A stretch of 64,000 nucleotides of DNA from an uncultured bacterium (GTDB lineage: Bacteria; Bacteroidota; Bacteroidia; Bacteroidales; CAIXTV01): assembly GCA_903922465.1 (NCBI GenBank), contig CAIXTV010000054.1:18278-82277 (forward strand), read 5' to 3'. Numbering within the stretch: the first letter of the stretch is position 1; each line of letters opens with the position of its first letter. The translations under genes were made by a program, and so were the position numbers. The notes under the pieces are model-generated. The model was not told the DNA's origin and did not search any database. It saw only the letters and a program-made list of their open reading frames with translations. Of this stretch, positions 16,911-58,504 are shown in pieces.

Positions 16911-17024
16911 AATTTGGTCAAGCAAATTGCAAATTTGGTCAGGCAAATTGCAAATTTGGTCGGGCAAATTGTCAATTTGGTCGGGCAAATTGCAAATTTG
17001 GTCGGGCAAATTGCAAATTTTGAC
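16911..17024. repeat. Tandem array, 21-bp period, 5 full units plus a partial (AATTTGGTCRGGCAAATTGCA)
   Basis: Units phased by hand at 16911, 16932, 16953, 16974 and 16995. Lies between the convergent 3' ends of recG and sprA. Confidence 0.95.
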
Positions 17025-17328
17025 TTAGAAAATTTGAATATTGTTGAATATCAGCAAATTAAAAATCGATATGTTTTCTTTTCTTGATATACATGAAATA
17101 AAAAAAGAAAATAAACGGCTAATTTCCATAAAAAGCTTTACGAAAACATATTCGCTTAAACAAAACCCACCTTCACTCCTTCTGTGCTGAATCTAAAAGT
17201 AACTTCTGATAATAAGTGTTTTGATGCTAATCTGTCCCTTTTTGATTTATAACCTCAAAGATATTTGAGTAAACAGAGCACCTCCTCCCGTTTTTATCGA
17301 TTAGGACGCAATCTTAAAAAAATAATTT

Positions 17329-20300
17329 TTATAAAGTAAACTTAATGCTAATACCCGTATTCATATTAGTAATAGGGAATTGTGATGAGACATAAGGAGT
17401 GTTAATCCTATCGTCGAAAAACAATTTAGCAGTGACTTTCTGACTAATTTGATATTCAGCAGAGACATTAATAGAGGTTAACGTTTGCCCCGAAGAGATT
17501 TGGTCGACGGCTTCAACTATCTTACGAAGTACGGTGCGATTGTCTCTTACCGAGAAATCAGCTTTTATATTCAAATCGCTCTTTTGCTTTTTCCCTTTAC
17601 TTGAACTTAAGCCAATAGCACGGAAAATATACTCTATATTTTTAATTCTGTAACCCAATCCAATTACAAATTCAGAACTGGTAACATCGGTTAGCTGATT
17701 GTTTGAGAAGCTCAAAGAGTAGTTTCTCGACTTCTTGTATTCGAACTTAGTTAGTAAGCTGTTCTTCCATGTCATGTCAATACTGATTAAGGGCGAAAAT
17801 TGCTCCGTAATCAAAATCATTCCGATTTCTTTAGATGGAAGATAATTCCCCAAAACATCTTTCACGTATTGATATCCATCAGCATCGGCTTGATATCTAA
17901 TATTAGTAATAAAAGAACCAACACTATATGATGAAGTATATCCATGCGAAAGTGTAATAGAGGAAAACCACTTCTTTATCATTTTAATTTTAGAAAGGCC
18001 AGTATAAGTAATTCTCCAATTGGGTAAAGGCAGAGTTGGAAAAGCTTTCAGAGAGACCTTAGAGGCATTTTTCCCGGCATAAGCTGCTAAAAAAGCAGGG
18101 ATGAGCACATCCTGAGATGTTGCACCATATCCCATTGGGAAATTAGTTGTGTCGTTTCGGGTTCCATCCCAATTGGGATTAGCACTGGCTAATCTATTGG
18201 CAATTTCCATTCTATAATCTTTAAAACGCTCAAATAATATACTGGAGTTTTCTTTATTGGTAACATCCGTAAAGGAAGTTCCAATCATCATAAACGACAT
18301 GCTGAAGTTACCAGTAGTGGTGGGTGAATATTGAGCGAATTGATTGCTTACACTATTATATTTATAATATTCCTGATGCATTTCAGTATAATTCCTATTG
18401 GCAGTCAGCTCAATTTTAAAATCGGGCAAAGGTTCCAATGTGGCACGGAAATTCAACACTTCAGACTTCTTGGTCAGATAAGGATAGTTCATCAGCGTGT
18501 CTGTAGTAAGCCAATTATTCATTACTGCGTCGGGTCTGATGTTCCTTTGTCCACCAAAAACAAAATCCAAACCCGGAGCACCTGAGCCAAAATCCTGCCC
18601 AACCATAACAGGTGATTTTGTAAAACCAGGCAAGAGTATACCTTCATTAATTGAATAATTAACGGATGCCGAACGGGCACTCATAATTAAACGTAAAGTA
18701 TTATCAAGAATTATTTTCAAATAGTTAGGGGTTTCAACAACTTCTGTCGAATCTAAATTCTTCCCAGTTTTAGGTGATTTAGCCGACGATTTAATTACAA
18801 TGCCTTTGGCGTTTTTAACAGGAATTGTTTCCTTCTTGGTAGAAGTTGACTGCCCTGAGTTAATCTTTTTGAGATAATCTATTTTATTATATAGGTTAAC
18901 AAAATTAAGATTAGCGTTCACTTGCTTTGTATTCGAGTTCTCAATAGTATTTCCCATTTCCTTTAACGACAAAGGAGAAGCCTCCCAACGATAAGTGCCA
19001 CCGTATTTAGCATTAACCGACACCCAATTAAGAATAGGGATTTTATTAATAGGAATAGTATAATTGATATCAATATTCTGATTGTAACGAGTCATACGAC
19101 CAAAGCCAAGAATATTATTGAATATCGAATCTTGTTTTGTTTTGGTATCAATTTTACCAGGAGGCTCATCAATACGGGCATTAGATGTCGCTGAATAATC
19201 AATTTTAAGCGATTGAGTTAGGTCATATTTAAGAGTATAAAACCTATTCCACTCGAAGATTTTAATATAACTTGGATCTATAATAACATTCCCAATACTT
19301 TTAGCACGCAGGAGTTTTTCAGAAAATTCCCGGTTAATGTCGGTACGGAAACCAAGGGTACGTGGTGCATAATAGAAATTAAAGTCTTTTACGGCGGCTA
19401 AAGATTTACTTTTTAAGAATTTAAACTTACTAAAAGGTCGAACATTCTTAGGATTCATTGAAAAGTTGTAGCCCAAACCACCAACGTGTTTCTTCTTAGT
19501 GTCGTATTCAATATCGATGTTTCTGTGACTAATTTCAGAATAGGCGTACGATAAATCAAAGTTTTCTACATCCCAAAGATGAACCTTGTTTGAAGAGCCG
19601 GTCCTATCCTTTCTCATATTCATGAAATTAATATTTTTCCGAATTGTAACGTCGTTTACAATGTTTTTTATTGAATCGCTTTGAAGACTATTGTCATAAG
19701 AATCAAGATCGGATTGAAGTTTAGTATCAGGATTGAGGGGATTGTATAAAGGTTTGTTGGTAATGTTCGAATAATCGTAATGCATTGGAATACGAACACC
19801 TGATTTTGCCCCTAAAAATTTGCCTAGTTCAAGATTGGTAGCAATGTCAAACTGTGTGATTTGTTCTTTTTGTCTTTCATTTATCTTTTTTTCAAGACTA
19901 CCAAAACCTGGTGTGCTAATCTGTCCTGCAACCTGTAAATCTCCAAGATCAGCGAGATTGGTGCGTATACGTGCAGTTGCGGCCCATCCCCCATACTCAT
20001 TAAAATCGGTTAGTCTTAATTCGTTCACCCAAATTTCAGCAGATTTAGGAAGCATATCATCATTATCGCCCAAAGCCTTCTTTTTCGGATTTCTAATACC
20101 TATCATGATGGTTCTGACATCAGCTATATTAGGAGCACCCATAACAGTGATTCGGTTGCTACCATCAGGAACAATATAAGGATTTGAAATTGACACGCCT
20201 GCAACGCTATTACGGAAATCGATATTCCGATTTTGTTTTGCATCAATAAACTTTTGCAATTCAATCTCCAATTGATTTTGATCGGGCCAAATTGAGCGAT

Positions 20301-23300
20301 CGTCAGTTGCAGGAGTTCCCCAAGTGGTGAAAGCAAGAGGGAGTTCATATTCATAATAGTTCTGGGTGAAATCGGAACCCAAACGAATAAATAAACTTAA
20401 ATCACCAGTATACATATTTTCGCTTGCTTTCAATTTTTCAGCATGCACATACATTTTCAATTTCTTGAACTGTCTTAAATCAAAGGTGGTAGTTTTATAA
20501 CAAGCTCTGGCATCGCCATCCAATAAATCATACACCCTCATTACAAGTGATTGCTCATTGAGTTGTTGAAGGTTGGTGGTAGCCGAATTGATTTCTCTAT
20601 TAATATCAGGAGGCAAAACATAAGGAATAGGAATTCTTGCTCCATTTTCTTCAATGCTAACAGCTGATAATTCAAACTTCGTATCTGCCGCAGGTCCTCC
20701 AGGCACATAGTCTCCAGGAGATAATAAATCGTTGGTATATTTTCTCCAGTCGCTCTTTACCAATTCAAAAGTTGCAAAACGACAAACTACTTCTTGCGAG
20801 AAATTACTTAAAAACATACGCAAGAAACGAACCGATTGAAATCCGTTGATTTGTCCAATTACCTTTTCGGGACTACGAACAGGAATTTTAAACTGATACC
20901 ATTTACAATTGGCAGTTGAACCATTAGCTAAAGGAACACCAGTTGCTTCATACATATCCGTAATATAATTCTCACCAACAACCATTTTATCAGGTTTCAG
21001 ATCGATATGGTATTGATAATATTTTTCTTCTTCGCTTAATGTATTGTCGTTATTAATATCTTCCACGTTAGGAAGCGTAGTTCCTAGTTCTTGAGGTGTG
21101 GTTGAATTTCCATCAGGACCATTAAATAATTTATAACGGTCAAGTATTTTCACATCGGCATTGTCTAAATCAGTGCCTCTGAAATAATGAAAGTCATCAG
21201 CAGAAGGGTCATTTGAAGCATCAATATAAGCCTGAGAAGTTGGGCCAAGCGTAGTAGCGATATTTTGTACATATCCCGAGAAAAAAGCTTGTTCGTAAGA
21301 ATCTCTTAATCCATCATAACCCACATCTTGAAATGGACGGGCAGCCGGGTCATTATCAAAAGCATTTACAACTGGCTGTAGAGTAGGCACTATTCCCCAT
21401 ATCGTAGTATCGACATTTGTAATTGTAGCCGTTGTTGGCAAACCATTTTCAAAGCTTTTTCTACCGTCTCTTAAGATATCTTCAGAAATATCACCCAAAT
21501 TGAAATACAATTTTCCCCCTGTATGATTTGGAACCGTGATAAATGGATCCATCATCCAAAACTCAATATATTCAACGTTAGTAGCATCAAAATCGGTTGT
21601 CTCAATTTTTCGCATAATCCCACCCCAACGGGTTTCAGGATTCTTCAGAGTTCCATCGGCATTTAAACCAGCTGAAAAAGGAGTTGTGTTTACATCATAA
21701 TTATAGGGACCTCTTTCGGAGGGATAATAAGCAAGATTTAATACGGCAATATTGGTAGGTTGACCATTTGGTGCTTGTTTGTTTGGAAATATTTCATTCT
21801 CTAATATTTCACGGGCATAGGGTTTCGATTGGTCATCGCTAGTGATATTTGAAGGCTTTTCGCTTCCCGAACGGTAAAACAAGGGATCAATTACATACCA
21901 AGCTAGTTTTGCTCTGTTAAATCCATAAGCAAGTGTTCCCGTGGTAGCTTCAGGAAACAATGTAGATTGTCCCAAAGGAGTACTTGCAAGATTCCAAGTA
22001 GCAATATTCTTTAAATCAATAGAAGATTTTGTTCCTTCAAAGTCATCAATATAAGATGTCCCTGAAGTTCCGATGGCACTTGAATGCCCTGGGATAAATT
22101 GAGCGAACTCACCATAAAAATTGATTTTTGAAGGGGCCTTTGTTTGAATCAAAGGTAAGAAGTCAACCAATTTGGTAATAAATCTCGAATCGGTTTGATA
22201 AGCTAAATCTAATCCCCAAATTGTATTATTAATTGGTTCGTCACCAAAATTCACCTTTTGAGTTATAGGTTTTTCGCGAAGATTTAAAATGGTAGCACCA
22301 ATATTAAAATCTTTATTGAATTCATAGTTAACGTGAGCACCAATAAAGCGCTTGGTTTGAAAATTCATTAAAGTATTACTCTCAGTCGAAATATTAATAG
22401 GTGTACCTGAGTTTAATATTCCTTCATTTATTATACGAACTCTACCCATTGTATAATCGACAGTGTAATCAACATTTTCTGTTAGAACAATACCTCCAAC
22501 TGAAACTCTAACCGATCCTTGAGGAATATTACCCATTCCAATAGAAATTTCGGAACCAGAAGCAGACTTATAAAAACCCTCGAGTATATATTTGTTTTTG
22601 TCAGGAAATTGTTGTGCTCCAGTTTTTGTCAATGTATAGAGGGAATCGTAAGCATACTTATTTGCAAATGTTGTATCAGGACAATCCTTACAAAACAGGG
22701 CACGCATATCTTTACCAAAAGGTTCAACCGTTGGGAAAAAGATTCTTCCGTTTGAAGCCTGTATCGTTCCTCCGTTAGTTGCAGCCTGATCAATAAAATC
22801 GAATATTCCGTCAGGTTCCGGATCTAATTGTGTGTTTAAGCGATCTAAACCCATGAGTTTGATTAAAGGGATTCCTTGTTTAGGACCTTCAGTAAAAAAT
22901 CCATTAGGAACACCACTATTATCGCCAGAATATAAAACATTCAGACGAAAATCTTCTTTATTCACCTGATATGCCCCTAAAGAATATACATTCTTCATCA
23001 TCAATTTCCATAAGGAAGATTGAGTGTTGAGGGATGAACTCTTTACCAACTTTACTATAATTGAATTGGGGGCATTCACTTCGTTTGAAAATTCTCCTAC
23101 CTGATATACAGTTGTGTCTCCAATAATTTGGAATTGATAAGCAACAGCCAAAACCTGATCAGGATTAAGAGATGTGTTTAAGGAAATAAATCCTAATTTC
23201 GAATTGTAAGTGTATTCCTGAGGGGTCAGCTTACGGGCAAGTTCTACCTTTTCATAATCCTGACCTGCAATAAGACCTTTTCCTGAAAGATAACTGCTTA

Positions 23301-24576: not shown

Positions 24577-24592
24577 GTAGATTCGGTTTTGT

Positions 24593-25177
24593 TTATAAAA
24601 TTTTCAAGGCTCTTTTAATGAGTTCTTCCACACTTAAATTTTCCTCAGCACTTTTTATCACTTTCATAATAGCTTTTTCAGCAACAAGTCGGACAAATCC
24701 AAGCATAACTAAACCAGATAACGCTTCTTGTTGAATTGTATTGTATGCAACCGAATAATTTTCACTTAAAATGGTCTTTTTCGATAATTTATCCTTTAAT
24801 TCTATAATGATTCTTTGAGCTGTTTTACCTCCAATCCCCTTAATGGCTTGCAAGAGACTTACATTTCCCATAGCTACTGCCTGGCAAATATCATCAGGGT
24901 TCATGGCCGAAAGCATCACACGAGCGGTATTTGGTCCAATTCCCGAAACCGAAATTAAATGCCTGAAAATATCTCTTTCATTTTCATCAATAAAGCCATA
25001 AAGCGTATGCGAGTCTTCTTTCACAATCAAATGAGCAAATAATTTGCAACTTTCAATATTGTTAAGTTTCTCATATGTATACAACGATATGTTGAGCATA
25101 TAACCCACTCCTTGCACATCTATAACTGCGTATGCGGGATTCTTCTCTACAAGTTTTCCTTTAATAAATGCAAACAT
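24593..25177 (-). CDS. ruvA: Holliday junction DNA helicase subunit RuvA
   Basis: MFAFIKGKL... N-terminus, with the HhH motifs LISVSGIGPNTA and IKGIGGKTAQRI. Start set at ATG 25177 because a -7 box sits at 25208-25215, inside the longer ORF. Confidence 0.95.
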   Translation of the reverse strand: MFAFIKGKLVEKNPAYAVIDVQGVGYMLNISLYTYEKLNNIESCKLFAHLIVKEDSHTLYGFIDENERDIFRHLISVSGIGPNTARVMLSAMNPDDICQAVAMGNVSLLQAIKGIGGKTAQRIIIELKDKLSKKTILSENYSVAYNTIQQEALSGLVMLGFVRLVAEKAIMKVIKSAEENLSVEELIKRALKIL

Positions 25178-25207
25178 ATCTTCTAAGACGTTTCTGATTA
25201 ACGTTTG

Positions 25208-27122: not shown

Positions 27123-27172
27123 AATATTACATTTTTGAAGCCGTAAATTTACGCTTATTATGTATTATACTC

Positions 27173-32706: not shown

Positions 32707-33196
32707 TAAACCAAGTTCTGCAGGCTATGGTGATTTAATTAGATATAAGGGAAAGGTTTTTAGATTAGCAATTACATACTTTTCTTTTGGGATCCACAAA
32801 GATTAAATATCTAGGCATAATGTTAAAAACAAGATTTTAGTAATTGGTCTGCCCCCCCATTAATCAGAAATCCTTATAGAATGTTATGCAAAAATTATTT
32901 CTAGTCAACAGAATTTGTAATTAGATATTATTATCAGCAGAAATATCTTTTTATCAATATATGTTTTTAGTATCTGAAAAGAATTTTGTATCTTTGAATC
33001 ATGAAATAGCAACATGAATATTCTTCTGTATCGGAGCTTAGTGGGGCGCATAAGCCATAGGGCTGCCCTTTGTTTTACGAAGAACAAAAAGCAGGATATT
33101 GTTTTGTCATAACAAGAAGAGGCTATTTTAAATATCAAGATATTTTCAGCATAACTTTTCTAACTTACACACTTTATGGGATACTGCCAATCTCAA

Positions 33197-33427
33197 GTCA
33201 TTCGATTCCCGAATTTAGTCATTTTATTCCCGAAAAAAATCATTCGCTTCCCGAATTTAGTCATTTTATTCCCGAAGAAAATCATTTTATTCCCGAATAT
33301 TGTTATCCGCTTGCCGAAGAAAATCATTTTATTCCCGAAGAAAATCATTCGCTTCCCGAATTTAGTCATTTTACTTCCAAAGAAAATCATTTTATTCCCG
33401 AATATTATTACCCTATTCCCGAAGAAA
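33197..33427. repeat. Tandem array, 21-bp period, 11 units (consensus RTCATTTTATTCCCGAAGAAA) with a 105-bp higher-order repeat
   Basis: Units phased by hand from 33197 in exact 21-bp steps. Units 3-7 are repeated as units 8-11. Open in several frames on both strands. Confidence 0.95.
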
Positions 33428-33831
33428 ATGACAAAAGAAGTCTAGCTTTTCAAGAAGTTAGGCATTTTAGAAATTTGTTGATGCTGCAGTTAAGCATGCA
33501 ATTAATTATATTTCAAATAGTTTTAAATCAGGCTTGCATAATTTGCATTTAAGTTTGATGTATTACAGAGGTATTAAGGCTGAAAATATTTTAAAGAGAA
33601 AGATAAACATTCAAATTGGCTAGCTGACTTTTTAAGGAGGTCTATTTAAGGTGCTAATACAAAAACGAAAACAATTCTACTTAAAAATATCTTATAGGAA
33701 TATCTCTAAAAGCTGATTTTGTTAATAATAAAACTAAATAGTTGAAATTAAAAAAGCAAGCCGAACAATGCCGCTTTTGAAATTTAGTTTTTCAATATAG
33801 ATTCAATTATGCTTATTATCATTATTTTTTC

Positions 33832-33839
33832 TACATTTG
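33832..33839 (+). promoter_or_regulatory. Bacteroidota -7 promoter box (TACATTTG)
   Basis: Exact TAnnTTTG 18 nt upstream of the TTG start at 33858. Confidence 0.45.
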
Positions 33840-43158: not shown

Positions 43159-46100
43159 CTATAACTTACGGCGTGTTTCAATTTGTTCGTATCCTTCAAT
43201 TATATCGCCAATTTTTATATCGTTAAAACTTTCGATATTTAGACCGCATTCCATACCAACATTTACTTCTTTTGCATCATCTTTGAATCTTTTAAGAGAG
43301 CCTAATTTTCCAGTATAAATTACGATACCATCTCTGATAAGTCTAATTTTTGTATTACGGGTAATCTTACCATCAAGCACCATACATCCTGCAATTGCTC
43401 CAACTTTAGTTATACGGAAAACTTCACGTACCTCGATATTGCAAAGAATCTTTTCTTCAATATCTGGTGACAACATGCCTTCAATAGCTAATTTAATTTC
43501 GTTAATCGCATTATAGATAATTGAATATAATCGAATGTCGATTTGTTCCTGCTCAGCAAGTTTACGTGCACTTGGAGAAGGACGCACCTGGAATCCAACA
43601 ATAATAGCATTAGAAGCCGAAGCAAGTAAAACATCCGACTCAGTAACCTGACCGACTGATTTATGAATTACATTCAACTGTACTTCAGGTGAAGAAAGTT
43701 TGAGCAAGGAATCAGACAAAGCTTCTATTGATCCATCAACATCACCTTTTACAATAATGTTTAGTTCTTTAAAGTCACCAATTGCAATACGACGTCCAAT
43801 TTCATCAAGTGTGATGTGTTTTTGTGTTCGTAGACCTTGTTCGCGAATAAGCTGTTGACGTTTTGTTGCAAGAGATTTAACTTGTTGCTCATCTCTCATA
43901 ACTTTAAATGTATCCCCTGCCTGAGGTGCATCATTTAAACCTAGTAATAATACTGGAGCAGAAGGTCCGGCCTGTTTGATTGGCTGATTCCTCTCATTAT
44001 ACATAGCTTTCACTTTTCCGTAGCAAGAACCTGCCAAAACCATGTCGCCCATCTTAAGGGTTCCGTTTTGAACCAATAATTTGACCACATAGCCTCTTCC
44101 TTTGTCGAGCGAGGACTCGATTACTGTTCCAACGGCTAAACGGTCGGGATTTGCCATAACTTCTAATAGTTCTGCTTCGAGAAGTACTTTCTCGAGCAAT
44201 AGTTCAATATTAACCCCTTTCTTAGCAGAGATTTCCTGGCTTTGATATTTACCACCCCAATCTTCAACTAAAATATTCAAATTAGATAATCCTTCTTTTA
44301 TTTTTTCGACATTGGCATTGGCCTTGTCAATTTTATTAATTGCAAAAACCATTGGAACACCAGCAGCCTGTGCATGATTAATAGCTTCAATTGTTTGAGG
44401 CATTATTGAATCATCAGCTGCTACAACAATAATTACCAAGTCAGTAACTTTTGCTCCTCTGGCACGCATAGCAGTAAATGCTTCGTGACCAGGAGTATCT
44501 AAAAATGTAATTTGCTTTCCATTTTGAAGTGTTACTTCGTAAGCTCCAATATGTTGTGTTATACCCCCTGCTTCTCCTGCAATTACATTGGTATTACGAA
44601 TATAATCGAGTAGTGATGTTTTACCGTGGTCAACGTGTCCCATAACGGTAACAATAGGCGCTCTTGGTAAAAGATCTTTTGGATCATCAGCTTCCTCGGC
44701 TTCGTCCTGCTGAGAATCGGCGGTAACAAATTGAACTTTAAAGCCATATTCCTCTGTAAGCAAAGCTATCGTTTCGGCATCCAATCGTTGGTTGATAGAA
44801 ACAAAAAGTCCTAAACTTAAACAGGTAGAAATAATTTGATTTACCTGAACATTCATTAAGGTAGCTAATTCATTAGCAGTAAGAAACTCGGTAACTTTTA
44901 ATGTTGATTTATCTTGTTCGAGTTGATCAAGGTCATCCTGATGAAGTTGGCTTACCATATCGCGTTTAATCCTACGATATTTCGATGCTTTCGATTTACC
45001 TGATGGACTTAGACGGGCAAGTGTTTCTTTAATTTGTTTATCGATTTCATCGCTGGTATATTCCGATTTTTCTTTTTTAACGAATCTGCCTTTTTTATCA
45101 TCCACTTTTGGTTTAACCGTAAGAGGTGGTTTAGGAGTAGTAACCGTTTTTGCAGGAACAGGAATGTCTGATTGTATGCGTTTGCGCTTCTTCTTTTTCG
45201 ATTTATTTCTTTCTTCTGAAGAAGTAGCATCGGGTTTACGAGTAGGATCTTTTGGAATGGGTAAGTCCATCCGACCTAATATCTTTGGACCGTCTAATTT
45301 ATTGAATTTTGTTTTAATAAAATTATATGGTTTCGGAACTAATGGAACTTCTGGAACTTCTACTATTGCTATAGGTTCTTCAGGAAGTTTCTCAGGGATA
45401 ATAATTTCTTCAGGAATGGAAACTTCAGGAACAGAAACTTCAGGTGCTTTCTTTAGTTTTGGTTTTGCTTTTTCTAAAGCTTCTTTAACCCTTTTTTCTT
45501 CTTTTTCAGTGAATAATTCTTCTTTCGACTTCTTTGAAGGTTTTGTCTTCTGGTTGAGCATTGACAAATCCATTTTGCCCACAATATTGGGTTGATCAAT
45601 TTTTATTTGATCAATTTGGGTAATATATTCGTTTGTGTTTTCAAACTCTATAACTTCCTCTTTCAAGGGTTTTTCTTCAACAGGAGGAGCAGGTGGTTCA
45701 ATTTCAATGACAGGTTCAACTACAACTGGCGCAACCACAACAGGTTCAACAATTACAGGTTCAGGCTCAACAACTACAACAGGAGGCTTTACTATAGGTT
45801 TGGGATCAAGGTCGATTTTCCCAAGCACTTTAGGTCCGGCATGTTTTTCAATTTCAATTCTTTCGATTTGAGGTGGAGCTTTATGCTCTTTTTCAATAAC
45901 AGTGCTTTTGATGTTGAGTTCTGGAAGTTCAGGCTCAATTTTAACTTCTTTGGGTTCTTCTTGCTTGTTAGCAATAGAAATTGTTTCGTGAGGAACATCG
46001 ATGAGTACCTTACCCGCAGATTCTTTTACGTTTTTTTCTGACTGATATTCCTTTGCAATCAACGCGTATTGTTCTGGAGAAATCTTTGTGTTCGGGCTTG

Positions 46101-46206
46101 GATCGACTTTATGCCCCTTTTTTGCAAGAAATTCAACTATGGTATTTATTCCAATATTGAATTCTCTTGCGATTTGACCCAGTCGTTTGATCTTGTCTTC
46201 TGACAT
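43159..46206 (-). CDS. infB: Translation initiation factor IF-2
   Basis: 1015 aa. GHVDHGKTSLLD, DTPGH and NKID GTPase motifs. Low-complexity P/V/E/K-rich N-terminal region. Confidence 0.97.
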   Translation of the reverse strand: MSEDKIKRLGQIAREFNIGINTIVEFLAKKGHKVDPSPNTKISPEQYALIAKEYQSEKNVKESAGKVLIDVPHETISIANKQEEPKEVKIEPELPELNIKSTVIEKEHKAPPQIERIEIEKHAGPKVLGKIDLDPKPIVKPPVVVVEPEPVIVEPVVVAPVVVEPVIEIEPPAPPVEEKPLKEEVIEFENTNEYITQIDQIKIDQPNIVGKMDLSMLNQKTKPSKKSKEELFTEKEEKRVKEALEKAKPKLKKAPEVSVPEVSIPEEIIIPEKLPEEPIAIVEVPEVPLVPKPYNFIKTKFNKLDGPKILGRMDLPIPKDPTRKPDATSSEERNKSKKKKRKRIQSDIPVPAKTVTTPKPPLTVKPKVDDKKGRFVKKEKSEYTSDEIDKQIKETLARLSPSGKSKASKYRRIKRDMVSQLHQDDLDQLEQDKSTLKVTEFLTANELATLMNVQVNQIISTCLSLGLFVSINQRLDAETIALLTEEYGFKVQFVTADSQQDEAEEADDPKDLLPRAPIVTVMGHVDHGKTSLLDYIRNTNVIAGEAGGITQHIGAYEVTLQNGKQITFLDTPGHEAFTAMRARGAKVTDLVIIVVAADDSIMPQTIEAINHAQAAGVPMVFAINKIDKANANVEKIKEGLSNLNILVEDWGGKYQSQEISAKKGVNIELLLEKVLLEAELLEVMANPDRLAVGTVIESSLDKGRGYVVKLLVQNGTLKMGDMVLAGSCYGKVKAMYNERNQPIKQAGPSAPVLLLGLNDAPQAGDTFKVMRDEQQVKSLATKRQQLIREQGLRTQKHITLDEIGRRIAIGDFKELNIIVKGDVDGSIEALSDSLLKLSSPEVQLNVIHKSVGQVTESDVLLASASNAIIVGFQVRPSPSARKLAEQEQIDIRLYSIIYNAINEIKLAIEGMLSPDIEEKILCNIEVREVFRITKVGAIAGCMVLDGKITRNTKIRLIRDGIVIYTGKLGSLKRFKDDAKEVNVGMECGLNIESFNDIKIGDIIEGYEQIETRRKL

Positions 46207-50338: not shown

Positions 50339-50535
50339 GATGGAGTGTAATTTTAAAACTTAGCACGAAGGTAGAAAAATTTACGGATATGAAAATATCT
50401 TTAGAAAATAAAAACTTCAGAGGGCAGTATTTTTGCAATAAAATCCTGATTAAAAGGGTTCTTTTTCAGTAAATATCCCAATTTTAAAAGCATTAGCCTT
50501 AATAATTTCTATTTAAAACTATGATATTGCTGGTT

Positions 50536-50829
50536 AAAATCGCAGAATATTTTGCAGAAATCTCGGAATATTTTGAAAAAATCTTAGGATTTAAAGTTGA
50601 AATCCTGAAATTTAAAGTTGAAATCCCAGAATATTTTGCAGAAATCCCAGAATATTTTGCAGAAATCCCGGAATATTTTGCAGAAATCCCGGAATATTTT
50701 GCAGAAATCCTAGGATTTTTTGAAAAAATCCTAGGATTTTAAGTAGGAATTCGAGGATTTTAAATTGGAATTCTAAGATTTCAACTTTATTTTCTAGGAT
50801 AATTTCTTGAGATTCAAGGATTTTTTCGA
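50536..50829. repeat. Tandem array, 21-bp period, about 12 clear units plus 2 degenerate (core GAAATCCCRGAATATTTTGCA; flanking units carry the AAATCCTAGGATTT palindrome)
   Basis: Units phased by hand in exact 21-bp steps from 50536. Four near-identical core units at 50620-50703. Lies in the divergent region between pgi and the FN3 gene. Confidence 0.95.
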
Positions 50830-50991
50830 AAACTTCCGTAAATAAATATTACCATCACAACAAATATTTTTTATTGCCTCAAATAATATTAAAATAATAA
50901 TGATGTTTTGTAACAGCTAAAAGATTTATTTGTATTTTAGCACCCTAATTTAAAATCATCAAAAAATAAACTTTATAAAAAGGAGGCATTT

Positions 50992-51609
50992 ATGTTAATC
51001 TACTTATCAAACCTAAGAAATCGTTTTTTTCAATTACTCAACGGAGTAAGCCATCACTCTGTCGAATGGACAAATCAGGCAGAAACACCCGTAACCATAC
51101 AGGGAAACATGGATTCTATCGATGAGAAGCAAGCAGAAATCGACCAACTCGAATATCAACTTTCACAAAAAAAGAAAGAAGCAAGACTTCTTGAGAAAAG
51201 TTTAATTATGGTAGCAGACACTATTGAGAACAAGGCCATTGGGTTTCATACAGCCCACACCGAAGAACTTAAAAGTTACGGCATAAGCCTGCCTAAACCA
51301 AAAGAAAAAAAACCTATTCCTTCAGCTCCACTTGCCCCTAGCATTAAAGATGATGTTGATGGAGTTGGATTTATTTTAAGCACTACACTTGACCCCAATG
51401 CCGACCGCTACGAATGGCAAAGAGGCGTTGCTAATGACGCCAAAGACGTGAACACCATTCCTGCAATGCAACTCTATAAAAGCACAAGGAAACTCACATT
51501 TGTTGACGAAAATGTTGTTCCCGGGCTACGCTATTTCTATCGTGTTCGTGCCATTAACGCAACAGGCGAAGGAGCCTACAGTCCTATAGTAAATAAAGTA
51601 CAGTCCTAA
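50992..51609 (+). CDS. Hypothetical protein with coiled-coil N-half and C-terminal fibronectin type III-like domain
   Basis: RYEWQRG...YFYRVRAINATGEGAYSP is an FN3 signature. No signal peptide. AGGAGG lies 5 nt upstream of the ATG. Confidence 0.55.
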   Translation: MLIYLSNLRNRFFQLLNGVSHHSVEWTNQAETPVTIQGNMDSIDEKQAEIDQLEYQLSQKKKEARLLEKSLIMVADTIENKAIGFHTAHTEELKSYGISLPKPKEKKPIPSAPLAPSIKDDVDGVGFILSTTLDPNADRYEWQRGVANDAKDVNTIPAMQLYKSTRKLTFVDENVVPGLRYFYRVRAINATGEGAYSPIVNKVQS

Positions 51610-51629
51610 AAAATAAAAATATCACTTGA

Positions 51630-51668
51630 AAAAAAACTTGCCTAAAGTCTATAGGCAAGTTTTTTTTT
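51630..51668 (+). terminator. Rho-independent terminator
   Basis: ACTTGCCTA / TAGGCAAGT stem flanked by an A-run and a T9 run. Confidence 0.8.
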
Positions 51669-51773
51669 AACTGTCTAAGAAAGCCCCCGTTAAACAATCA
51701 CAATGAATCAGGCAATTGAACTATTATTTAAAACTTCTGTTAATATTTATTGTTCAGGCAACTATTTAATGTT

Positions 51774-51781
51774 TAACTTTG
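51774..51781 (+). promoter_or_regulatory. Bacteroidota -7 promoter box (TAACTTTG)
   Basis: Exact TAnnTTTG 43 nt upstream of ATG 51825. Confidence 0.4.
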
Positions 51782-51824
51782 TCTTGTCTTAAAAGTATTA
51801 CACATCACCAAAACTTCATACTAT

Positions 51825-54158: not shown

Positions 54159-54181
54159 AACTGCTAATATGATTTAATATT

Positions 54182-54209
54182 AAAGGGGGAAGATGTTTCC
54201 CCTTTTTTT
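54182..54209 (+). terminator. Rho-independent terminator
   Basis: AAAGGGG / CCCCTTT stem followed by a T7 run. Confidence 0.7.
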
Positions 54210-54310
54210 ATGAAACTAAGTTCTTAAATTGAATTTGCTCTATATCTGAACTCAATTATTAATAGTGCTTTCTGAATCTAAAATAAACAATACCCAACAA
54301 AAGCCCTTGT

Positions 54311-55408
54311 TTATTCTTTTACCCCTTCATTCATAATATCGGTTTGTATTTGAATTGCTTCGCGATGAACCAATTGAAATAGCTTAAGTAGAAATTCGCT
54401 TTTTAGTCCAGTAGATTCAGCTAAAGCCAACCTTTCGGTGAGCATTTGATTCCAACGGTTTAGTTGCAGAATAGTAATATTGTTCTGACGTTTATACTGC
54501 CCCATCTTTTCAACAACTTCCATGCGTTGCATAAGAGTATCAATCAGCCGTCGGTCGATTTCATCAATTTCTTGTCTAAGCATTTCAAGTTGATTCTGGA
54601 AATCAGACGTACCTGAAAAAGCTCTCACCTTAAGTTTTTCTAGCATTGCAGCCAAAGCTTCAGGCATAATTTGTTGACGAGCATCGGTAAGTGCCTGCGA
54701 AGGATGAATATGCGATTCTATCATTAGTCCACTCATTTCAAGGTCGAGTGCTTTTTGAGAAATGGCAGCCAGATGTTCTTTCTTACCACTAATGTGGCTG
54801 GGGTCGCATATAACTGGAAGTTCAGGACAAAGCCGTTTCAATTCAATAGGCACTTCCCATAAAGGTTCATTTCTATAAAGGGTTTTATTAAAAGAATAAA
54901 ATCCACGGTGCACAGCAGCTAAATTGGTGATTCCGGCATTATTAAGCCTTTCGAGGGTTCCCAACCAAAGCGTTAAATCGGGATGAATGGGATTTTTTAC
55001 CAGCACCGCAACCTTGCAACCTTTAAGTGCATTTGAAATTTCCTGCACCGAAAAGGGATTAACGGTTGTTCGCGCACCTATCCAAAGAATATCAATATCG
55101 TGCTGTAGGCAAAGTTCAACATGCTTTGGATTGGCAACCTCAACGGCAAGCTTAAGTCCGGTAATTTTTTTAACCTCACTCAACCATTCCAGCCCAATTT
55201 CGCCAACTCCTTCAAATTTAGAGGGTCGAGTCCGGGGTTTCCATATTCCTGCCCGGAATGCTTTAACCCCGGGTATTTTGGAAAGTTCAATAGCAGTATC
55301 AATAATCTGTTCGCGACTTTCGGCACTACAGGGTCCGGCTATCACTAAAGGGCTGCATTTTGTGCTTAGCCAGTTTTCTATGGGTTGTATTTGGAGGCAA
55401 TTTGACAT
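54311..55408 (-). CDS. Bifunctional 3-deoxy-7-phosphoheptulonate synthase (type I-beta) / chorismate mutase
   Basis: The KPRT motif region (WKPRTRPSKFEG) and CDPSH are DAHPS motifs. The C-terminal roughly 90 aa is an AroQ-type chorismate mutase helix bundle (LRQEIDEIDRRLIDTLMQRMEVV). Confidence 0.9.
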   Translation of the reverse strand: MSNCLQIQPIENWLSTKCSPLVIAGPCSAESREQIIDTAIELSKIPGVKAFRAGIWKPRTRPSKFEGVGEIGLEWLSEVKKITGLKLAVEVANPKHVELCLQHDIDILWIGARTTVNPFSVQEISNALKGCKVAVLVKNPIHPDLTLWLGTLERLNNAGITNLAAVHRGFYSFNKTLYRNEPLWEVPIELKRLCPELPVICDPSHISGKKEHLAAISQKALDLEMSGLMIESHIHPSQALTDARQQIMPEALAAMLEKLKVRAFSGTSDFQNQLEMLRQEIDEIDRRLIDTLMQRMEVVEKMGQYKRQNNITILQLNRWNQMLTERLALAESTGLKSEFLLKLFQLVHREAIQIQTDIMNEGVKE

Positions 55409-55493
55409 GAGAGGGTAAAATTATATAAAATAAGTGCGTGATGATAGAAATAAAAGAAATGTTATGTCAAATACACCTCAAATGCTTTAAACT

Positions 55494-55526
55494 AAACCTA
55501 CCAGGTTTTGAAAACCTGTTAGGTTT
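55494..55526. repeat. Imperfect palindrome AAACCTACCAGGTTTT G AAAACCTGTTAGGTTT
   Basis: 16-nt arms with one mismatch. Resembles a hairpin class I recall as common in Bacteroidota intergenic DNA. Confidence 0.7.
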
Positions 55527-55554
55527 TACTTACACTATGCTATTTAGTATAAGT

Positions 55555-55832
55555 GTCATTGCGTGTCCCCATTCCTTCGGCACACCAAATTTTATGACAT
55601 GGAGAAGGTAATATATTGCACTAAATGATAATATGAGCGTCATTGCGAGGGTTCCTCCCGAAGCAATCTCCTTTGTTTTAGATTGCTTCGCTACGCTCGC
55701 AATGGCGAACCCGACTTTACTAACAGTTTTCAAGTCATAAATAATCACCGTGTTACAAAATGTTGTCATTATTAGAAGAAAGGACGAAGCAATCTCTCCA
55801 AATACAGATTGCTTCGCTGCGCTCCCAATGAC
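55555..55832. repeat. Cluster of three GTCATTGCG...AATGAC palindromic (REP/MITE-like) elements
   Basis: Copies at 55555-55598 (partial), 55638-55707 and 55765-55832. The two full copies share a perfect inner stem CGAAGCAATCT/AGATTGCTTCG and outer arms CATTGCGAG/CTCGCAATG or GTCATT/AATGAC. Confidence 0.85.
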
Positions 55833-55900
55833 GCAATAGCACGAGAGTTTCGAAGAATTAAACCCAATAAGATTAAAATAAATCTCCATTCATAACGTTT

Positions 55901-56689
55901 ATGTTTACCTTTGTAAGCGAAATGAAACACTTTATATTATCTATTTTACTCTCTTCTGTGTTAATGCTTGCTGAAAAGCCAGCCTATTCACAAAGATCCC
56001 TTGTCGACTCGGCAGCCTTTGTTACTCTAATTTATGCCACCTATCAATATCAGTTTCCGGGAGGAGATATGGTCAATCGCTTTGGTGTTAATTCTAACAT
56101 TGGAGGTGGTATTTCCATCAAGAATAAATCGAACTGGATATTTGGATTAGAAGGGGGTTATATTTTCGGAGATGTTGTGAAAGGTGGTGACAATCTATTC
56201 TCAGGAATAGCCACTTCCGATGGAAATCTTATTGACGGAAACGGAATTCTTGCCGAAATTCACTTGTATGAAAGAGGCTATCATTTTCAGTTTAAAGCAG
56301 GGAAGATATTCCCTATATTTGGTTCTAACCCCAACTCTGGCTTGTTGATTCAGGCAGGGGCAGGCTTTCTCGAACATAAAATCCGAATTGAAAACCCCGA
56401 AAATACAGCTCCTCAAATAAAGGCTGATTATAAAAAAGGCTACGATAAATTATCGAACGGCTTATTACTCGACGAAACCATTGGTTATATTTATATGGGA
56501 AAACGTCGCCTTACCAACTTTTTTATTGGCTTCGAATTCATGCAAGCTTTTACTAAAAGTCGCCGCGACTACGACTTCAACCTTCAGGGAAAAGACAACA
56601 GCAGCAGAACTGATATTTTATCTGGCATTCGGGTTAGTTGGATTATTCCACTTTATAATCGAGGACAGACTCATTATTATATTAATTAA
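55901..56689 (+). CDS. Hypothetical outer-membrane-like protein
   Basis: Signal peptide (start possibly ATG 55922, MKHFILSILLSSVLMLA). Beta-strand-rich. Immediately upstream of kdtA (7-bp gap). Confidence 0.45.
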   Translation: MFTFVSEMKHFILSILLSSVLMLAEKPAYSQRSLVDSAAFVTLIYATYQYQFPGGDMVNRFGVNSNIGGGISIKNKSNWIFGLEGGYIFGDVVKGGDNLFSGIATSDGNLIDGNGILAEIHLYERGYHFQFKAGKIFPIFGSNPNSGLLIQAGAGFLEHKIRIENPENTAPQIKADYKKGYDKLSNGLLLDETIGYIYMGKRRLTNFFIGFEFMQAFTKSRRDYDFNLQGKDNSSRTDILSGIRVSWIIPLYNRGQTHYYIN

Positions 56690-56695
56690 AGCCGA

Positions 56696-57934
56696 ATGTT
56701 TTTACTCTACAATATTGGCATCAGAGTATTCAATGTTTTGATTTGGCTTTCTTCTTTTGCTAATATAAAAACCCGCCAATGGATTAATGGACGTAAAAAT
56801 CTGTTTAAAGAATTATCCAAAATAGATTTTCATAAGCATAATATTGCATGGTTTCATTGTGCTTCTTTGGGAGAGTTCGAACAAGGCAGACCGGTCATTG
56901 AGCAATTCCGCAAAGATTACCCTCACTTCAAAATTCTGCTCACCTTTTTTTCTCCTTCAGGCTACGATATCAGGAAGAATTACCCGGGTGCCGATTTTAT
57001 TTTCTACCTACCCATCGATACCCCTTCTAACGCCCGTCGCTTTATCGGACTGGTGAAACCTCAGCTGGCTTTCTTTATAAAATATGAGTTTTGGTATAAT
57101 TATTTGAAATGCTTACGTGCGAATAATATTCCCGTGGTTTTTATTTCCGTAATCTTTCGCCCTCAACAAATCTTTTTCCGTTGGTATGGAAGTTGGTTTC
57201 GCAGTCAATTAAAAGGTATTAATCATTTCTTTTTACAAAATCAGGCATCTGCCCACCTCCTTCAATCGGTCGGAATATCGCAATATACCATCGGCGGCGA
57301 TACCCGCTTCGACAGAGTGTATGCAATAGCACAATCCGCTCAATCCTATCCTTTAATTGAGGAATTTGCCAAAGGACATCGCGTAATACTCCTCGGCAGT
57401 TCCTGGGAAGAAGACGAAAAGCTTTTTCAAACCATTCTAAACGATTTGCCCGACGACATTAAACTCATCATTGCACCCCACGAGCCTTCGGCAAGCCATG
57501 TACAGCAAATCCATCAAATGTTTTCCCGCCCCCTGATGAATTATTCCGCTTTGATTCCCGAAAAAGCTGCTACTGCTGGCATCCTTTGCATCGATTCTAT
57601 CGGAATGCTTTCCTCCTTATACCAATATGCCGATATAGCCTACATAGGCGGTGGGTTTGGAAAAGGCATTCACAATATTTTGGAAGCCGCTACTTTTGGC
57701 AAACCCATTGTTTTTGGACCTAACTATCAAAAATTCGCCGAAGCCGTCGATCTTATTCAGCTCAATGCCGCATTTTCTATTTCAAGCAACCATCAATTAC
57801 TCTTGGTTCTAAATCAATTACTCACCCATAACGAACACTATCAAAAAGCATCCCATGCCTCTCAACATTATGTCGAAAGCAAAACAGGTGCCTGTAAAAT
57901 AATACTTGAACATATTAAAAATTATGTTCAATGA
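56696..57934 (+). CDS. waaA: 3-deoxy-D-manno-octulosonic acid (Kdo) transferase
   Basis: WFHCASLGEFEQGRPVIE and C-terminal GGGFGKGIHNILEAATFGKP motifs of KdtA/WaaA (GT30). Confidence 0.9.
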   Translation: MFLLYNIGIRVFNVLIWLSSFANIKTRQWINGRKNLFKELSKIDFHKHNIAWFHCASLGEFEQGRPVIEQFRKDYPHFKILLTFFSPSGYDIRKNYPGADFIFYLPIDTPSNARRFIGLVKPQLAFFIKYEFWYNYLKCLRANNIPVVFISVIFRPQQIFFRWYGSWFRSQLKGINHFFLQNQASAHLLQSVGISQYTIGGDTRFDRVYAIAQSAQSYPLIEEFAKGHRVILLGSSWEEDEKLFQTILNDLPDDIKLIIAPHEPSASHVQQIHQMFSRPLMNYSALIPEKAATAGILCIDSIGMLSSLYQYADIAYIGGGFGKGIHNILEAATFGKPIVFGPNYQKFAEAVDLIQLNAAFSISSNHQLLLVLNQLLTHNEHYQKASHASQHYVESKTGACKIILEHIKNYVQ

Positions 57935-58126
57935 AATTATAGCTTTGCTGAGTATAATTAGTCCATATTTTATATAGAGACAATGCTGATCATTCCCATT
58001 TTTATTCATCATTATTAATTGCATTTCATCTTTTCCCTTTTCCTCCTAGATATCTAAACCACTAAAAGCTTATTTTCCAAATGTCCCCAATGTCCCAATA
58101 GTCTCAGTTGTGCTGTTAATTTCACA

Positions 58127-58504
58127 ACATCCATTACGCTTGGAAGAACATCCATAGGCCATCCAACGATAAGCATTACGCTTAGAAAGACATCCAAACT
58201 ACTTGAAAGAGAAAGCATTACGCTTGGAATGACATCCATACCGCTTTCAACGATATCCATACCGCTTTCAACGACATCCATACCGCTTTCAACGACATCC
58301 ATACCGCTTTCAACGACATCCATACCGCTTTCAACGACATCCATACCGCTTTGAACGACATCCATACCGCTTTCAACGACATCCATACCGCTTTGAACGA
58401 CTTCCATACCACTTTGAACGACTTCCATACCGCTTTCAACGACTTCCATACTGCTTTGAACGACTTCCATACTGCTTTGAACGACTTCCATAGAACAAAA
58501 TGCG
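58127..58504. repeat. Tandem array, 21-bp period, 18 units (core ACATCCATACCGCTTTCAACG)
   Basis: Units phased by hand in exact 21-bp steps from 58127. Degenerate at the 5' side, near-perfect at 58232-58399, and an ACTTCCATA variant block at 58400-58504. Open in at least 3 frames. Confidence 0.95.

Follow-up and report, generated by a model that had tools for sequence, protein, structure and literature searches.

Why do four tandem arrays in one segment of a bacterial chromosome share a repeat period of exactly 21 bp? The window, by which we mean the whole 64-kb stretch of DNA that was analysed, contains four such arrays, with ∼6, 11, 14 and 18 head-to-tail units and no spacers between them:

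Array 1, 16909–17034, no strand assigned: six units of 21 bp (five good and one decayed), consensus AATTTGGTCGGGCAAATTGCA.
Array 2, 33197–33427, no strand assigned: 11 heterogeneous 21-bp units with the core TCATTTTATTCCCGAAGAAAA and a higher-order repeat of 105 bp (five units).
Array 3, 50536–50829, no strand assigned: ∼14 units, each of 21 bp and strictly in register, with four near-identical central units (GAAATCCCRGAATATTTTGCA) and decayed edges.
Array 4, 58128–58505, no strand assigned: 18 units of 21 bp with the near-identical unit GACATCCATACCGCTTTCAAC; five degenerate left units with a 42-bp alternation are followed by 12–13 near-identical units.

TRF detects four period-21 sites in the window: array 1 at 16911–17020 (5.2 copies, 93% match, 0 indels), array 2 at 33195–33429 (∼10–11 copies, and 42, 63 and 105 as higher-order periods), array 3 at 50537–50731 and 50733–50781 (9.3 and 2.3 copies), and array 4 at 58132–58492 (12.5 near-identical copies at 95%, the five preceding degenerate units being called as period 42). 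Hand phasing places the 6, 11, 14 and 18 units of the four arrays in a register of exactly 21 bp without indels; the 4% indels that TRF reports for array 3 reflect a choice of alignment. An autocorrelation scan of the full window at lags 5–69, which is independent of TRF, returns strong periodic tracts at these four sites only, at lag 21 or 42, and they are the sole strong tandem arrays within the 64 kb. The three approaches agree with the sequence-only reading of this DNA, which had described four intergenic, spacer-less 21-bp arrays with differing units and with conserved cores that decay outward, and whose unit counts are reproduced by hand phasing.

The common period is not a product of chance. 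With equal probability for every period from 13 to 60, finding all four arrays at period 21 would have P ∼2e-7, and P is ∼0.002 when the 22% share of period 21 among arrays of distant Bacteroidota is used instead. The arrays also recur in independent metagenome assemblies and are therefore not an artefact of a single assembly.

Apart from their period, the four arrays have nothing in common. Unit-to-unit matches between arrays fall within the null, the flanks of different arrays show no similarity, no solitary copies of the units occur elsewhere in the window and plasmid searches gave no match. An ungapped 11/13 core that had been pointed out in arrays 2 and 3 does exist, but it is not significant, lying within the null of best cyclic matches between shuffled units. 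No motif, flank, palindrome, predicted curvature, GC pattern or fold common to the four arrays was found; the ssDNA fold has z = −5.8 in array 1, whereas array 4 is unstructured (z = +1.6). The arrays are thus independent of one another.

Array 1 lies in a convergent gap (recG (+) ends at 16777 and sprA (−) at 17329), array 2 in a 1.2-kb tandem gap between a 203-aa ORF (+) and a family-2 glycosyltransferase gene, GT2 (+), array 3 in a divergent gap between pgi (−) and a 205-aa ORF (+), and array 4 in a tandem gap between kdtA (+) and a ZIP transporter gene (+). A promoter-like −7 box of GT2, at 33832, is outside array 2. The flanking genes (recG/sprA, glycosyltransferase, pgi, kdtA/ZIP) are housekeeping genes with no rep, par or cas gene among them, and none of the ∼20 ORFs scanned, which include all array-flanking ORFs, is a cas gene. 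Housekeeping flanks of this kind exclude CRISPR, iterons and partition sites. In the case of CRISPR the units also abut without spacers, as the earlier reading had held; in the case of iterons there is also no shared or dispersed motif.

We surveyed ∼3.6 Mb of related loci, which are gene neighbourhoods from MAGs; marker identity and record titles served to group them. In the Bacteroidales-like loci (1.47 Mb), 9 of the 19 arrays with at least three copies and a period of 13–60 belong to the 21-bp family (seven at 21 bp and two at 42 bp; P ∼2e-8). Repeats of 2–2.9 copies peak at 21 as well, with 13 cases compared with 3–6 at periods 17–20 and one each at 22–24 (P = 2e-5). Ordered by falling marker-protein identity, from at least 83% down to other phyla, the loci have densities of the 21-bp family of 61, 17, 7 and 8 per Mb; the value for the window is 62 per Mb, distant Bacteroidota have ∼7 per Mb, and the Flavobacteriales/Saprospiraceae loci (0.69 Mb) contain no array with at least three copies and a period above 12. 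Large independent 21-bp arrays with unrelated units are found at loci L041 (12.7 copies), L084 (14.7) and L273 (13.5), and higher-order repeats of 42 and 105 bp occur in arrays 2 and 4 and at L273. A 7-bp sub-period in the 21-mers is not significant once one heptamer-derived case is removed.

Many MAGs from different studies show the peak, as do JGI contigs. A broad spread of periods had been named earlier as a result that would count against a shared mechanism; this partial survey instead shows sharp centring on 21, and the phenomenon, which had been framed as local to ∼42 kb, is a trait of the whole clade, newly found here. Turnover is fast: the nearest species-level relative, MAG ELA062 (83–91% aa identity), has 21- and 42-bp arrays whose positions and units differ from those of the window. 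Unit sequences always differ and positions are not conserved between species, yet the period persists. The arrays occupy ∼3 convergent, 4 divergent and at least 7 tandem gaps; they are not tied to a single kind of gene boundary, as would suit a process blind to promoters and terminators. In relatives, a few 21-bp repeats sit within real proteins (L058, L108). The clade consists of uncultured, mostly freshwater or anaerobic Bacteroidales-like bacteria.

Copy-number change is seen directly at array 4. The kdtA–ZIP gap measures 1053, 1032, 1032, 1011, 990 and 927 bp in six assemblies in which KdtA is 100% identical; the flanks are identical and every length difference is a multiple of 21. The array is therefore polymorphic, with 12–18 units across otherwise identical assemblies, although these alleles were obtained from short-read assemblies, in which repeats can collapse. 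Copy-number variation, which the earlier reading had proposed to tabulate, is present in array 4 at least, always in 21-bp steps. Arrays 2 and 3 do not vary among the few assemblies spanning them (array 2 is identical in L175 and L176, and array 3 in L170, L171 and L174). For array 1 the indication is indirect: in another contig the ORF ending at the same stop codon is at least 94 aa long, which implies more units there.

Some lineage-specific rule governs the making or keeping of these repeats, in the window and in its relatives. The reading that we prefer, at a probability of roughly 55%, is that they are fast-turnover non-coding minisatellites subject to a lineage-specific, sequence-independent 21-bp constraint, probably that of two helical turns. 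Each array would have been born independently from local intergenic sequence as a VNTR-type minisatellite, with no ancestor, motif or binding protein common to the four, and point mutation would decay its edges. We infer that slippage is the engine, such that replication slippage or unequal sister-strand exchange would drive growth, shrinkage and homogenisation in register. Within the clade, essentially only 21-bp units and their 42-, 63- and 105-bp multiples would expand and persist. The smallest integer number of base pairs equal to whole helical turns is 21 (2 × 10.5), so that successive units all share one face of the helix. That helical geometry or a ruler protein is the reason for 21 is speculative; the cause that we favour is geometric, with a lineage-specific DNA-bound factor that touches DNA at two-turn steps favouring 21-bp expansions. 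Candidates would be an architectural or filament-forming protein or a repair/recombination complex, indifferent to unit sequence. Were the filter purely geometric, it should act in all bacteria and let 20 or 22 bp pass in short arrays, and the reading therefore needs a clade-specific factor.

Such minisatellites would resemble the VNTR loci used for MLVA typing in Yersinia, Coxiella, Legionella and Mycobacterium, which are mostly intergenic, head-to-tail direct repeats of 10–100 bp without spacers, with a homogeneous core and decayed edges, rapid gain and loss between species and whole-unit copy-number steps between close strains, as in array 4. VNTR unit lengths in known species are scattered over many values, whereas here 21 bp and its 42-, 63- and 105-bp multiples dominate a whole clade with unit sequences that all differ. 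Eukaryotic satellite DNA likewise shows concerted evolution of units, higher-order repeats (here 42 bp in array 4 and L273 and 105 bp in array 2) and fast sequence turnover at constant period, and its period is thought to mirror a structural unit of chromatin. The present arrays are tiny (0.1–0.4 kb) and lie in a bacterial chromosome, and we know of no packaging particle that would set 21 bp.

An unlikely but possible alternative is that the arrays are rows of functional sites on one helix face, whether iteron-like or nucleation platforms, bound by a specific regulator or initiator or by an architectural protein, whose role would be to titrate, silence, insulate or organise neighbouring genes. 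Two helical turns is the spacing of plasmid and phage iterons (P1, F, pSC101, R6K, RK2), which are 17–22-bp direct repeats set ∼21–22 bp apart, and the sharp period fits a face-of-helix requirement. The array 1 unit is dyad-symmetric (AATTTG-N6-CAAATT, a 6+6 palindrome with P = 0.03 versus shuffles), L084 has a 6-bp dyad too, and short partial palindromes (ATTCnnGAAT, TCCnGGA) are visible in the sequence of arrays 2 and 3. However, a dyad-symmetric unit occurs in array 1 only, and palindromy is not general (mean P 0.60). Unrelated units without solitary copies would require one protein per array. By wedge-model calculation, a check suggested earlier, the units are bent no more than shuffles (mean percentile 0.50), and they contain no 10.5-bp or 21-bp compositional wave; their sequence thus bears no mark of selection for curvature or for a protein that reads DNA shape. 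Iterons are found at an origin or control locus next to a rep gene, with one conserved sequence per replicon, whereas here four unrelated units occupy 42 kb of housekeeping chromosome without an origin feature or a rep, par or regulator gene beside any array, their positions are not conserved even in the 83–91% identical relative, and convergent gaps host arrays as readily as promoter regions do. The iteron-like phased binding proposed from the sequence alone accordingly fails.

We regard as quite doubtful a second alternative, an enzymatic ruler, in which a lineage-specific nuclease-, transposase- or integrase-like activity makes 21-nt staggered breaks whose fill-in creates 21-bp duplications that slippage then amplifies. 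The pattern is indeed agnostic to sequence and position, clade-restricted and very sharp in period. Fixed-stagger enzymes leave such signatures in target-site duplications and in CRISPR repeat duplication, and in CRISPR a protein ruler fixes the repeat length regardless of the inserted sequence. Period 21 is enriched already at 2–2.9 copies (13 versus 1–6 at neighbouring periods). On the other hand, no 21-bp peak is seen among dispersed direct repeats of the kind that could flank insertions, near-perfect isolated two-copy 21-bp duplications are rare (outside larger arrays, L049 only), no transposase, integrase or cas gene was seen beside the arrays, and we know of no transposase that yields 21-bp duplications. 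The arrays share regularly spaced direct repeats with CRISPR, but their 21-bp units abut, without a leader.

Because 21 bp is also seven codons, the arrays could be the repetitive cores of small protein genes of 73–160 aa with a seven-residue structural repeat, which we consider very improbable. The heptad ORFs read from the sequence earlier (IPEENHF, EIPEYFA, MDVVESG) do exist and are annotated by gene callers in other assemblies; arrays 2 and 4 are each spanned by a 160-aa ORF, a 73-aa ORF has its ATG 15 nt ahead of array 3, and the repeats of L058 and L108 lie within proteins. The seven-codon interpretation nevertheless fails, and the arrays evolve as non-coding sequence. These frames show no purifying selection among units (pN/pS of 2.9 for IPEENHF, 0.88 with three stops for EIPEYFA and 1.14 for MDVVESG), column entropy of the units has no codon phase, the ORFs match no Pfam family above cut-off, and a search of 5.8 billion proteins gave no homologue of the 160-aa array 4 ORF at E≤1e-3. 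Several frames are open on both strands, as expected of any stop-free 21-mer (∼60% per frame), yet no frame is stop-free across the full array 3 and L041 has stops in all three + frames. A Pro or Gly in each heptad speaks against a coiled coil, orthologues are absent in the nearest relative, and frame maintenance alone would permit 18 or 24 bp equally.

We give equally little credence to transcribed repeat RNAs, that is, UTRs (3′ or 5′) or ncRNAs that would load Rho through unstructured, C-rich tracts or serve as sponges for RNA-binding factors. Array 4, directly downstream of kdtA, is C-rich and G-poor on its + strand (8 C versus 2 G per unit) as well as unstructured, in L273 and array 2, too, C exceeds G on the strand that is sense for the upstream gene, and Bacteroidetes-type −7 boxes (TAnnTTTG) lie 100–240 nt from each array. 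The strand bias is inconsistent, however, with L001, L039 and L071 G-rich on the sense strand; −7 boxes occur at 1.4 per kb, so nearby boxes are expected by chance; there is no Rfam match even at E≤1; and RNA function does not explain exactly 21 nt.

That the arrays are ordinary VNTRs sharing a period by luck, or repeats made by assembly, is largely refuted: short-read contigs do end or collapse at arrays, so exact copy numbers are uncertain, but several independent assemblies contain identical arrays and the 21-bp peak holds across many MAGs and JGI contigs (P ∼2e-8).

The minisatellites proposed here have a counterpart in the heptanucleotide STRR arrays of cyanobacteria, which combine a lineage-specific fixed period with several unrelated units in intergenic DNA, although in a different phylum and with a period of 7 rather than 21. 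Relatives of the present bacterium are themselves rich in 7- and 8-bp arrays, whose units vary.

TRF run on the whole window returns four intergenic arrays of period 21 bp, listed here with the genes on either side (loci fetched from other genomes and metagenomes for comparison carry L-numbers below).

Array 1, 16911-17020: 5.2 copies, period 21, 93% match, 0 indels; convergent gap between recG (+) on the left and sprA (-) on the right
Array 2, 33195-33429: ~10-11 copies, period 21, with alternative TRF periods of 42, 63 and 105; tandem gap between a 203-aa ORF (+) and a glycosyltransferase (GT2) gene (+)
Array 3, 50537-50731 and 50733-50781: 9.3 + 2.3 copies, period 21; divergent gap between pgi (-) and a 205-aa ORF (+)
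Array 4, 58132-58492: 12.5 copies at 95%, the degenerate left part being read by TRF as period 42; tandem gap between kdtA (+) and a ZIP gene (+)

When the sequence is cut every 21 bases, arrays 1-4 phase into 6, 11, 14 and 18 units, confirming the strict 21-bp register and the unit counts of the sequence-only reading; its remark that there are no spacers also holds, the units being contiguous and directly abutting. An independent autocorrelation over lags 5-69 identifies these arrays as the only strong periodic tracts in the 64 kb, at lag 21 or 42, with lag-21 values of 0.65-0.86. Array 2 is organized as a five-unit (105-bp) higher-order repeat, and two unit types alternate in the old left end of array 4 and in the array of a relative's locus, L273, giving a 42-bp period. 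The other TRF rows in the window are weak repeats of 2-3 copies or lie inside genes. The only near-21 repeat that is not at 21 is a weak two-copy 22-bp repeat (51577-51617, 85% match by TRF) at the 3' end of the 205-aa ORF (50992-51609).

The window is a low-GC (~35%) segment of Bacteroidota chromosome with gliding and type IX secretion genes (GldM, GldN, SprA and a CHU_C cargo protein) and housekeeping genes (RecG, PGI, IF-2, NusA, RimP, DAHP synthase, KdtA, the ZIP transporter and tRNA-Met). The nearest relative among representative genomes is 'Bacteroidota bacterium ELA062', an uncultured lake MAG with 83-91% protein identity to the window, and no closer relative was found among JGI contigs. 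Identical contigs also occur in the ENA/ERZ1426xxx and BUCK21 sample series from the source lakes.

The only property common to the four arrays is the period. Similarity among the four intergenic regions does not extend beyond 11-12-nt chance words and there are no shared flanks, unit consensuses aligned cyclically on either strand give best matches within the shuffled-unit distribution, and no solitary unit copies occur elsewhere in the window; shared ancestry and spread as a mobile element were rejected on these grounds. The 11/13 core noted in the sequence-only reading for arrays 2 and 3 does exist, but it lies within the shuffled-unit null and is not significant.

We also looked for structural or compositional features of the units. 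Dyad symmetry is not general, being limited to array 1 (AATTTG-N6-CAAATT) and a relative's array, L084, and array 1 alone folds as single-stranded DNA (z = -5.8), with array 4 less structured than its shuffles. Palindrome- or hairpin-driven slippage is therefore rejected. Intrinsic curvature is rejected as well because the bend per unit sits at the 50th percentile of shuffles in the Bolshoy-Trifonov wedge model. The units have no GC-core/AT-spacer architecture and no 10.5-bp compositional wave or harmonic. Derivation from heptamer arrays is rejected for want of a 7-bp sub-period: the arrays give no autocorrelation at lag 7 or 14, and the cyclic shift-7 similarity of units is not significant once a single locus, L071, is removed. 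There are no Bacteroidetes -7 boxes inside the arrays, and C-rich Rho loading is rejected because strand bias is inconsistent among the examples.

To ask how widely the period is shared, we ran TRF on the neighbourhoods of four window proteins in representative genomes and JGI metagenomes, a survey of ~3.6 Mb in 262 loci of partial MAG data from which same-species contigs were excluded. In the Bacteroidales-like MAG loci (1.47 Mb), 7 of the 19 arrays with at least 3 copies and a period of 13-60 bp have a period of 21 bp and 2 of 42 bp (P = 2e-8), while every period other than 21 is represented by two arrays at most. Repeats of 2-2.9 copies in Bacteroidales-like loci likewise favour 21 bp, with 13 cases (P = 2e-5) against 3, 6, 3 and 3 at periods 17-20 and 1, 1 and 1 at 22-24. 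In the Flavobacteriales/Saprospiraceae loci (0.69 Mb) we found no array of at least 3 copies with a period above 12 and no excess at 21. A survey of this kind had been proposed in the sequence-only reading, and on the relatives' loci it yields a 21/42 peak, not a broad spread of periods. The density of 21-bp-family arrays drops with distance from the window organism.

Density of 21-bp-family arrays by relationship to the window organism
Window itself: 62 per Mb
Marker-protein identity to the window at least 83%: 61 per Mb
Marker-protein identity 73-82%: 17 per Mb
Distant Bacteroidota: 7 per Mb
Other phyla: 8 per Mb

Several large, independent examples have units unrelated to one another.

L041: 12.7 copies of AACGCATGGTGCAGAATGAAT
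L084: 14.7 copies of GAGATGTGTTGTAACACAAGA
L273: 13.5 copies, TCCGTCTTCCCGATCATCTAT and TCGGGTTTCCCAATCATCTAT alternating
L160: 4 copies

About 17 of 20 such arrays in the surveyed relatives are intergenic, and convergent, divergent and tandem gaps are all represented. ELA062 carries 21- and 42-bp arrays at other positions and with other units; its orthologous gaps cannot be aligned with those of the window, and no orthologous arrays were found in sister species, the ELA062 comparison covering loci other than KdtA. Arrays are therefore gained and lost more quickly than species separate, with no change of period. The shared 21-bp unit is a property of the clade and not of these four loci, a pattern that is statistically robust, yet drawn from partial MAG data.

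The sequence-only reading had quoted heptad repeats (IPEENHF, EIPEYFA and MDVVESG), which belong to frames of arrays 2, 3 and 4. Heptad ORFs are indeed present in the arrays, and gene callers annotate them in public assemblies:

33176-33445: 89-aa ORF, array 2
33070-33552: 146-aa ORF, array 2
50521-50742: 73-aa ORF, array 3
58054-58536: 110-160-aa ORF, array 4

Such ORFs are expected because any 21-mer that is stop-free in a frame yields one, and ~60% of frames are open by chance at this composition. In a unit-versus-unit comparison within array 2, the IPEENHF frame has a pN/pS of 2.9. The EIPEYFA frame of array 3 has a pN/pS of 0.88 and three stops, in an array with stops in all six frames, and MDVVESG, the sole stop-free frame of array 4, has a pN/pS of 1.14. 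The column entropy of the units reveals no codon phase, no Pfam family scores above cut-off for the array ORFs, and a search of 5.8 billion clustered proteins with the 160-aa array-4 ORF, the one ORF so searched, gave no homologue at E<=1e-3. Rfam at gathering score returns tRNA-Met only, and at E<=1 gives no match for the two longest gaps. The heptad-coding interpretation is thus unsupported, a coding tandem repeat is rejected, and in our view the arrays are evolving as non-coding DNA. The array-ORF 'proteins' of 73-160 aa that gene callers have deposited in databases are probably spurious entries whose length tracks repeat copy number. In contrast to the intergenic 21-bp arrays, the in-frame 9- and 15-bp repeats at 45335-45763, which encode the N-terminal region of IF-2 (gene at 43159-46206, - strand), are ordinary coding repeats.

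Copy number varies in whole units. Six assemblies with 100% identical KdtA have kdtA-ZIP gaps of 1053, 1032, 1032, 1011, 990 and 927 bp; the flanks are identical, whole internal units are missing and all length differences are multiples of 21. These differences indicate that array 4 has 12-18 units in the population, as counted in short-read assemblies, in which tracts of this kind can be collapsed; the ORFs called across array 4 range from 110 to 160 aa. Arrays 2 and 3, which have heterogeneous units, are identical in the 2-3 assemblies that span them, and many other contigs terminate within them. For array 1, a contig downstream of an identical RecG has an ORF of at least 94 aa that terminates at the stop codon of the window's 40-aa array-1 ORF, which indirectly suggests a longer array there. 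Homogeneous cores and decayed edges, together with higher-order repeats and whole-unit polymorphism, are what slippage or unequal exchange with concerted evolution usually produces. A metagenome contig (L179, 1-790, compared with window 33146-33334) is 100% identical to the window from 33334 onward. In this contig a shortened left flank (GGGATACTGCC|CGAAG...) runs straight into the middle of array 2, and the sequence further upstream differs; the contig comes either from a strain that has a 145-bp deletion and another neighbour or from chimeric assembly at the repeat.

Among known classes, the arrays correspond to minisatellites, with which they share head-to-tail direct repeats, a unit of 10-100 bp and no unique sequence between units, as well as, for array 4 in short-read assemblies, whole-unit copy-number variation among close genomes. 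Arrays 1-4 are non-coding, fast-evolving minisatellites, and we class them as VNTRs whose period is fixed in the lineage. Like eukaryotic satellites, they keep one period through rapid sequence turnover and form higher-order repeats; like cyanobacterial STRRs, they have a lineage-specific fixed period with arbitrary sequences, but they differ from the heptanucleotide STRRs in having no 7-bp unit. Our search of the full-text literature turned up no account of a preference for 21-bp periods in Bacteroidota or in prokaryotes generally. The iteron-like interpretation of the sequence-only reading is not supported, the likeness to origin iterons extending to spacing only: the arrays lie in a chromosomal housekeeping context with no adjoining Rep initiator gene or origin features, plasmid records match none of their units, and whereas iterons reuse one conserved unit per replicon, here there are four unrelated units with no further copies in the window. 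More generally, no rep, par, cas, transposase or integrase genes adjoin any array among the flanking ORFs and the other neighbours scanned. The arrays are not CRISPRs, since they have no unique spacers between repeats, no leader and no cas genes among the scanned neighbours, the flanking ORFs being RecG, SprA, GT2, PGI, KdtA and ZIP. A partition centromere (parC, sopC or parS type) is rejected because no parA/parB-type genes occur among the flanking ORFs.

Why the period should be 21 bp is a separate question. Only one physical quantity matches it, a length of two helical turns (2 x 10.5 bp), and we infer that helical geometry is the likeliest cause. Only with units of 21 bp or a multiple would all of them lie on one face of the helix regardless of sequence, a geometry that would matter to a protein or complex contacting DNA in two-turn steps. 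Such a factor would be lineage-specific, because the trait is restricted to one clade. Selection on DNA shape as such is disfavoured because the units have no curvature or composition signature. The remaining and more interesting possibility is a sequence-blind ruler, enzymatic or architectural. We tentatively assign a probability of roughly 0.3 to the proposal that the clade has a sequence-independent 21-bp ruler, which might be an enzyme making duplications of exactly 21 bp or a chromosomal protein that polymerises on or pairs DNA in 21-bp steps. In the architectural version, only arrays in register would be amplified and retained. Near-perfect isolated two-copy duplications are rare in the survey and too few to place the bias at birth or at expansion. 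An origin resembling target-site duplication should leave a footprint among dispersed direct repeats, and these have no peak at 21 bp. Were a homology-length threshold for recombination responsible, the peak should be broad and should not exclude 20 and 22. Frame maintenance is dismissed because 18 or 24 bp would be equally allowed and there is no sign of coding.

Tandem repeats as such are ordinary, but one razor-sharp unit length imposed across a clade on sequences that are unrelated is unusual. This pattern implies a feature of DNA metabolism or chromosome architecture that leaves a measurable footprint in the genomes of abundant, uncultured freshwater and anaerobic Bacteroidales, and comparing the distribution of the trait with the gene content of many genomes could be used to find the factor responsible. 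If a ruler does operate, the arrays would be the bacterial equivalent of structurally phased satellite DNA, which to our knowledge is a class undescribed in prokaryotes. The pattern is directly testable with complete genomes and long reads. In practical terms, the arrays break short-read assemblies, with contigs ending inside them, and array 4 offers a strain marker for this population that can be used as it stands.

Other repeats occur near the arrays and in relatives. The octamers TCCCAATG and AATAACCC lie on either side of array 4, at 58076-58099 and 58842-58895, and a perfect 9-bp stem hairpin, AAGCCGAAT-tgaaa-ATTCGGCTT, is found ~120 bp downstream of the array (58627-58660); it was missed by a terminator scan because it has no T-run. 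The gap between the DAHP synthase gene and a 262-aa ORF (55545-55833) contains two or three copies of a nested palindromic element (GTCATTGCGAGG ... CGAAGCAATCTCC-loop-AGATTGCTTCG ... CTCGCAATGRCG) that looks like a REP- or MITE-type hairpin element; the 11-mer GTCATTGCGAG occurs 4 times there, with 0.5 expected, and nowhere else in the window. In relatives, ACCAATG x3.9 lies near the 21-bp-family array of L273 (6222-6248), and 9-, 14-, 15- and 16-bp repeats adjoin other arrays (L009 6125-6168; L160 7480-7521 and 7841-7874; L001 7724-7753). Short tandem repeats thus cluster in gaps with 21-bp arrays, and some gaps look like islands that are prone to repeats or tolerate them.

Relatives of the window organism also have many 7- and 8-bp arrays, and none with a period below 7 reached a score of 60 in related MAGs. 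These long heptamer and octamer arrays have varied units (CACTCAT x9.6, CACTCCC x16.6, AGCCAAC x22, TCTTAAC x16 and CATCAGCA x12.6 among them), recall the heptamers of cyanobacterial STRRs, and are found at L068 6160-6226, L138 2046-2161, L114 13237-13393, L081 2496-2606, L117 8189-8289 and other loci. Distant Bacteroidia MAGs contain large spacer-less arrays of other periods (L117 2887-3881 and L118 1-184; L275 12160-12681; L068 8595-9062), among them 20 copies of a 50-bp unit with the palindromic core GACCCCTTCAGGGTC, 3.5 copies of a 149-bp unit and 4 copies of a 115-bp unit.
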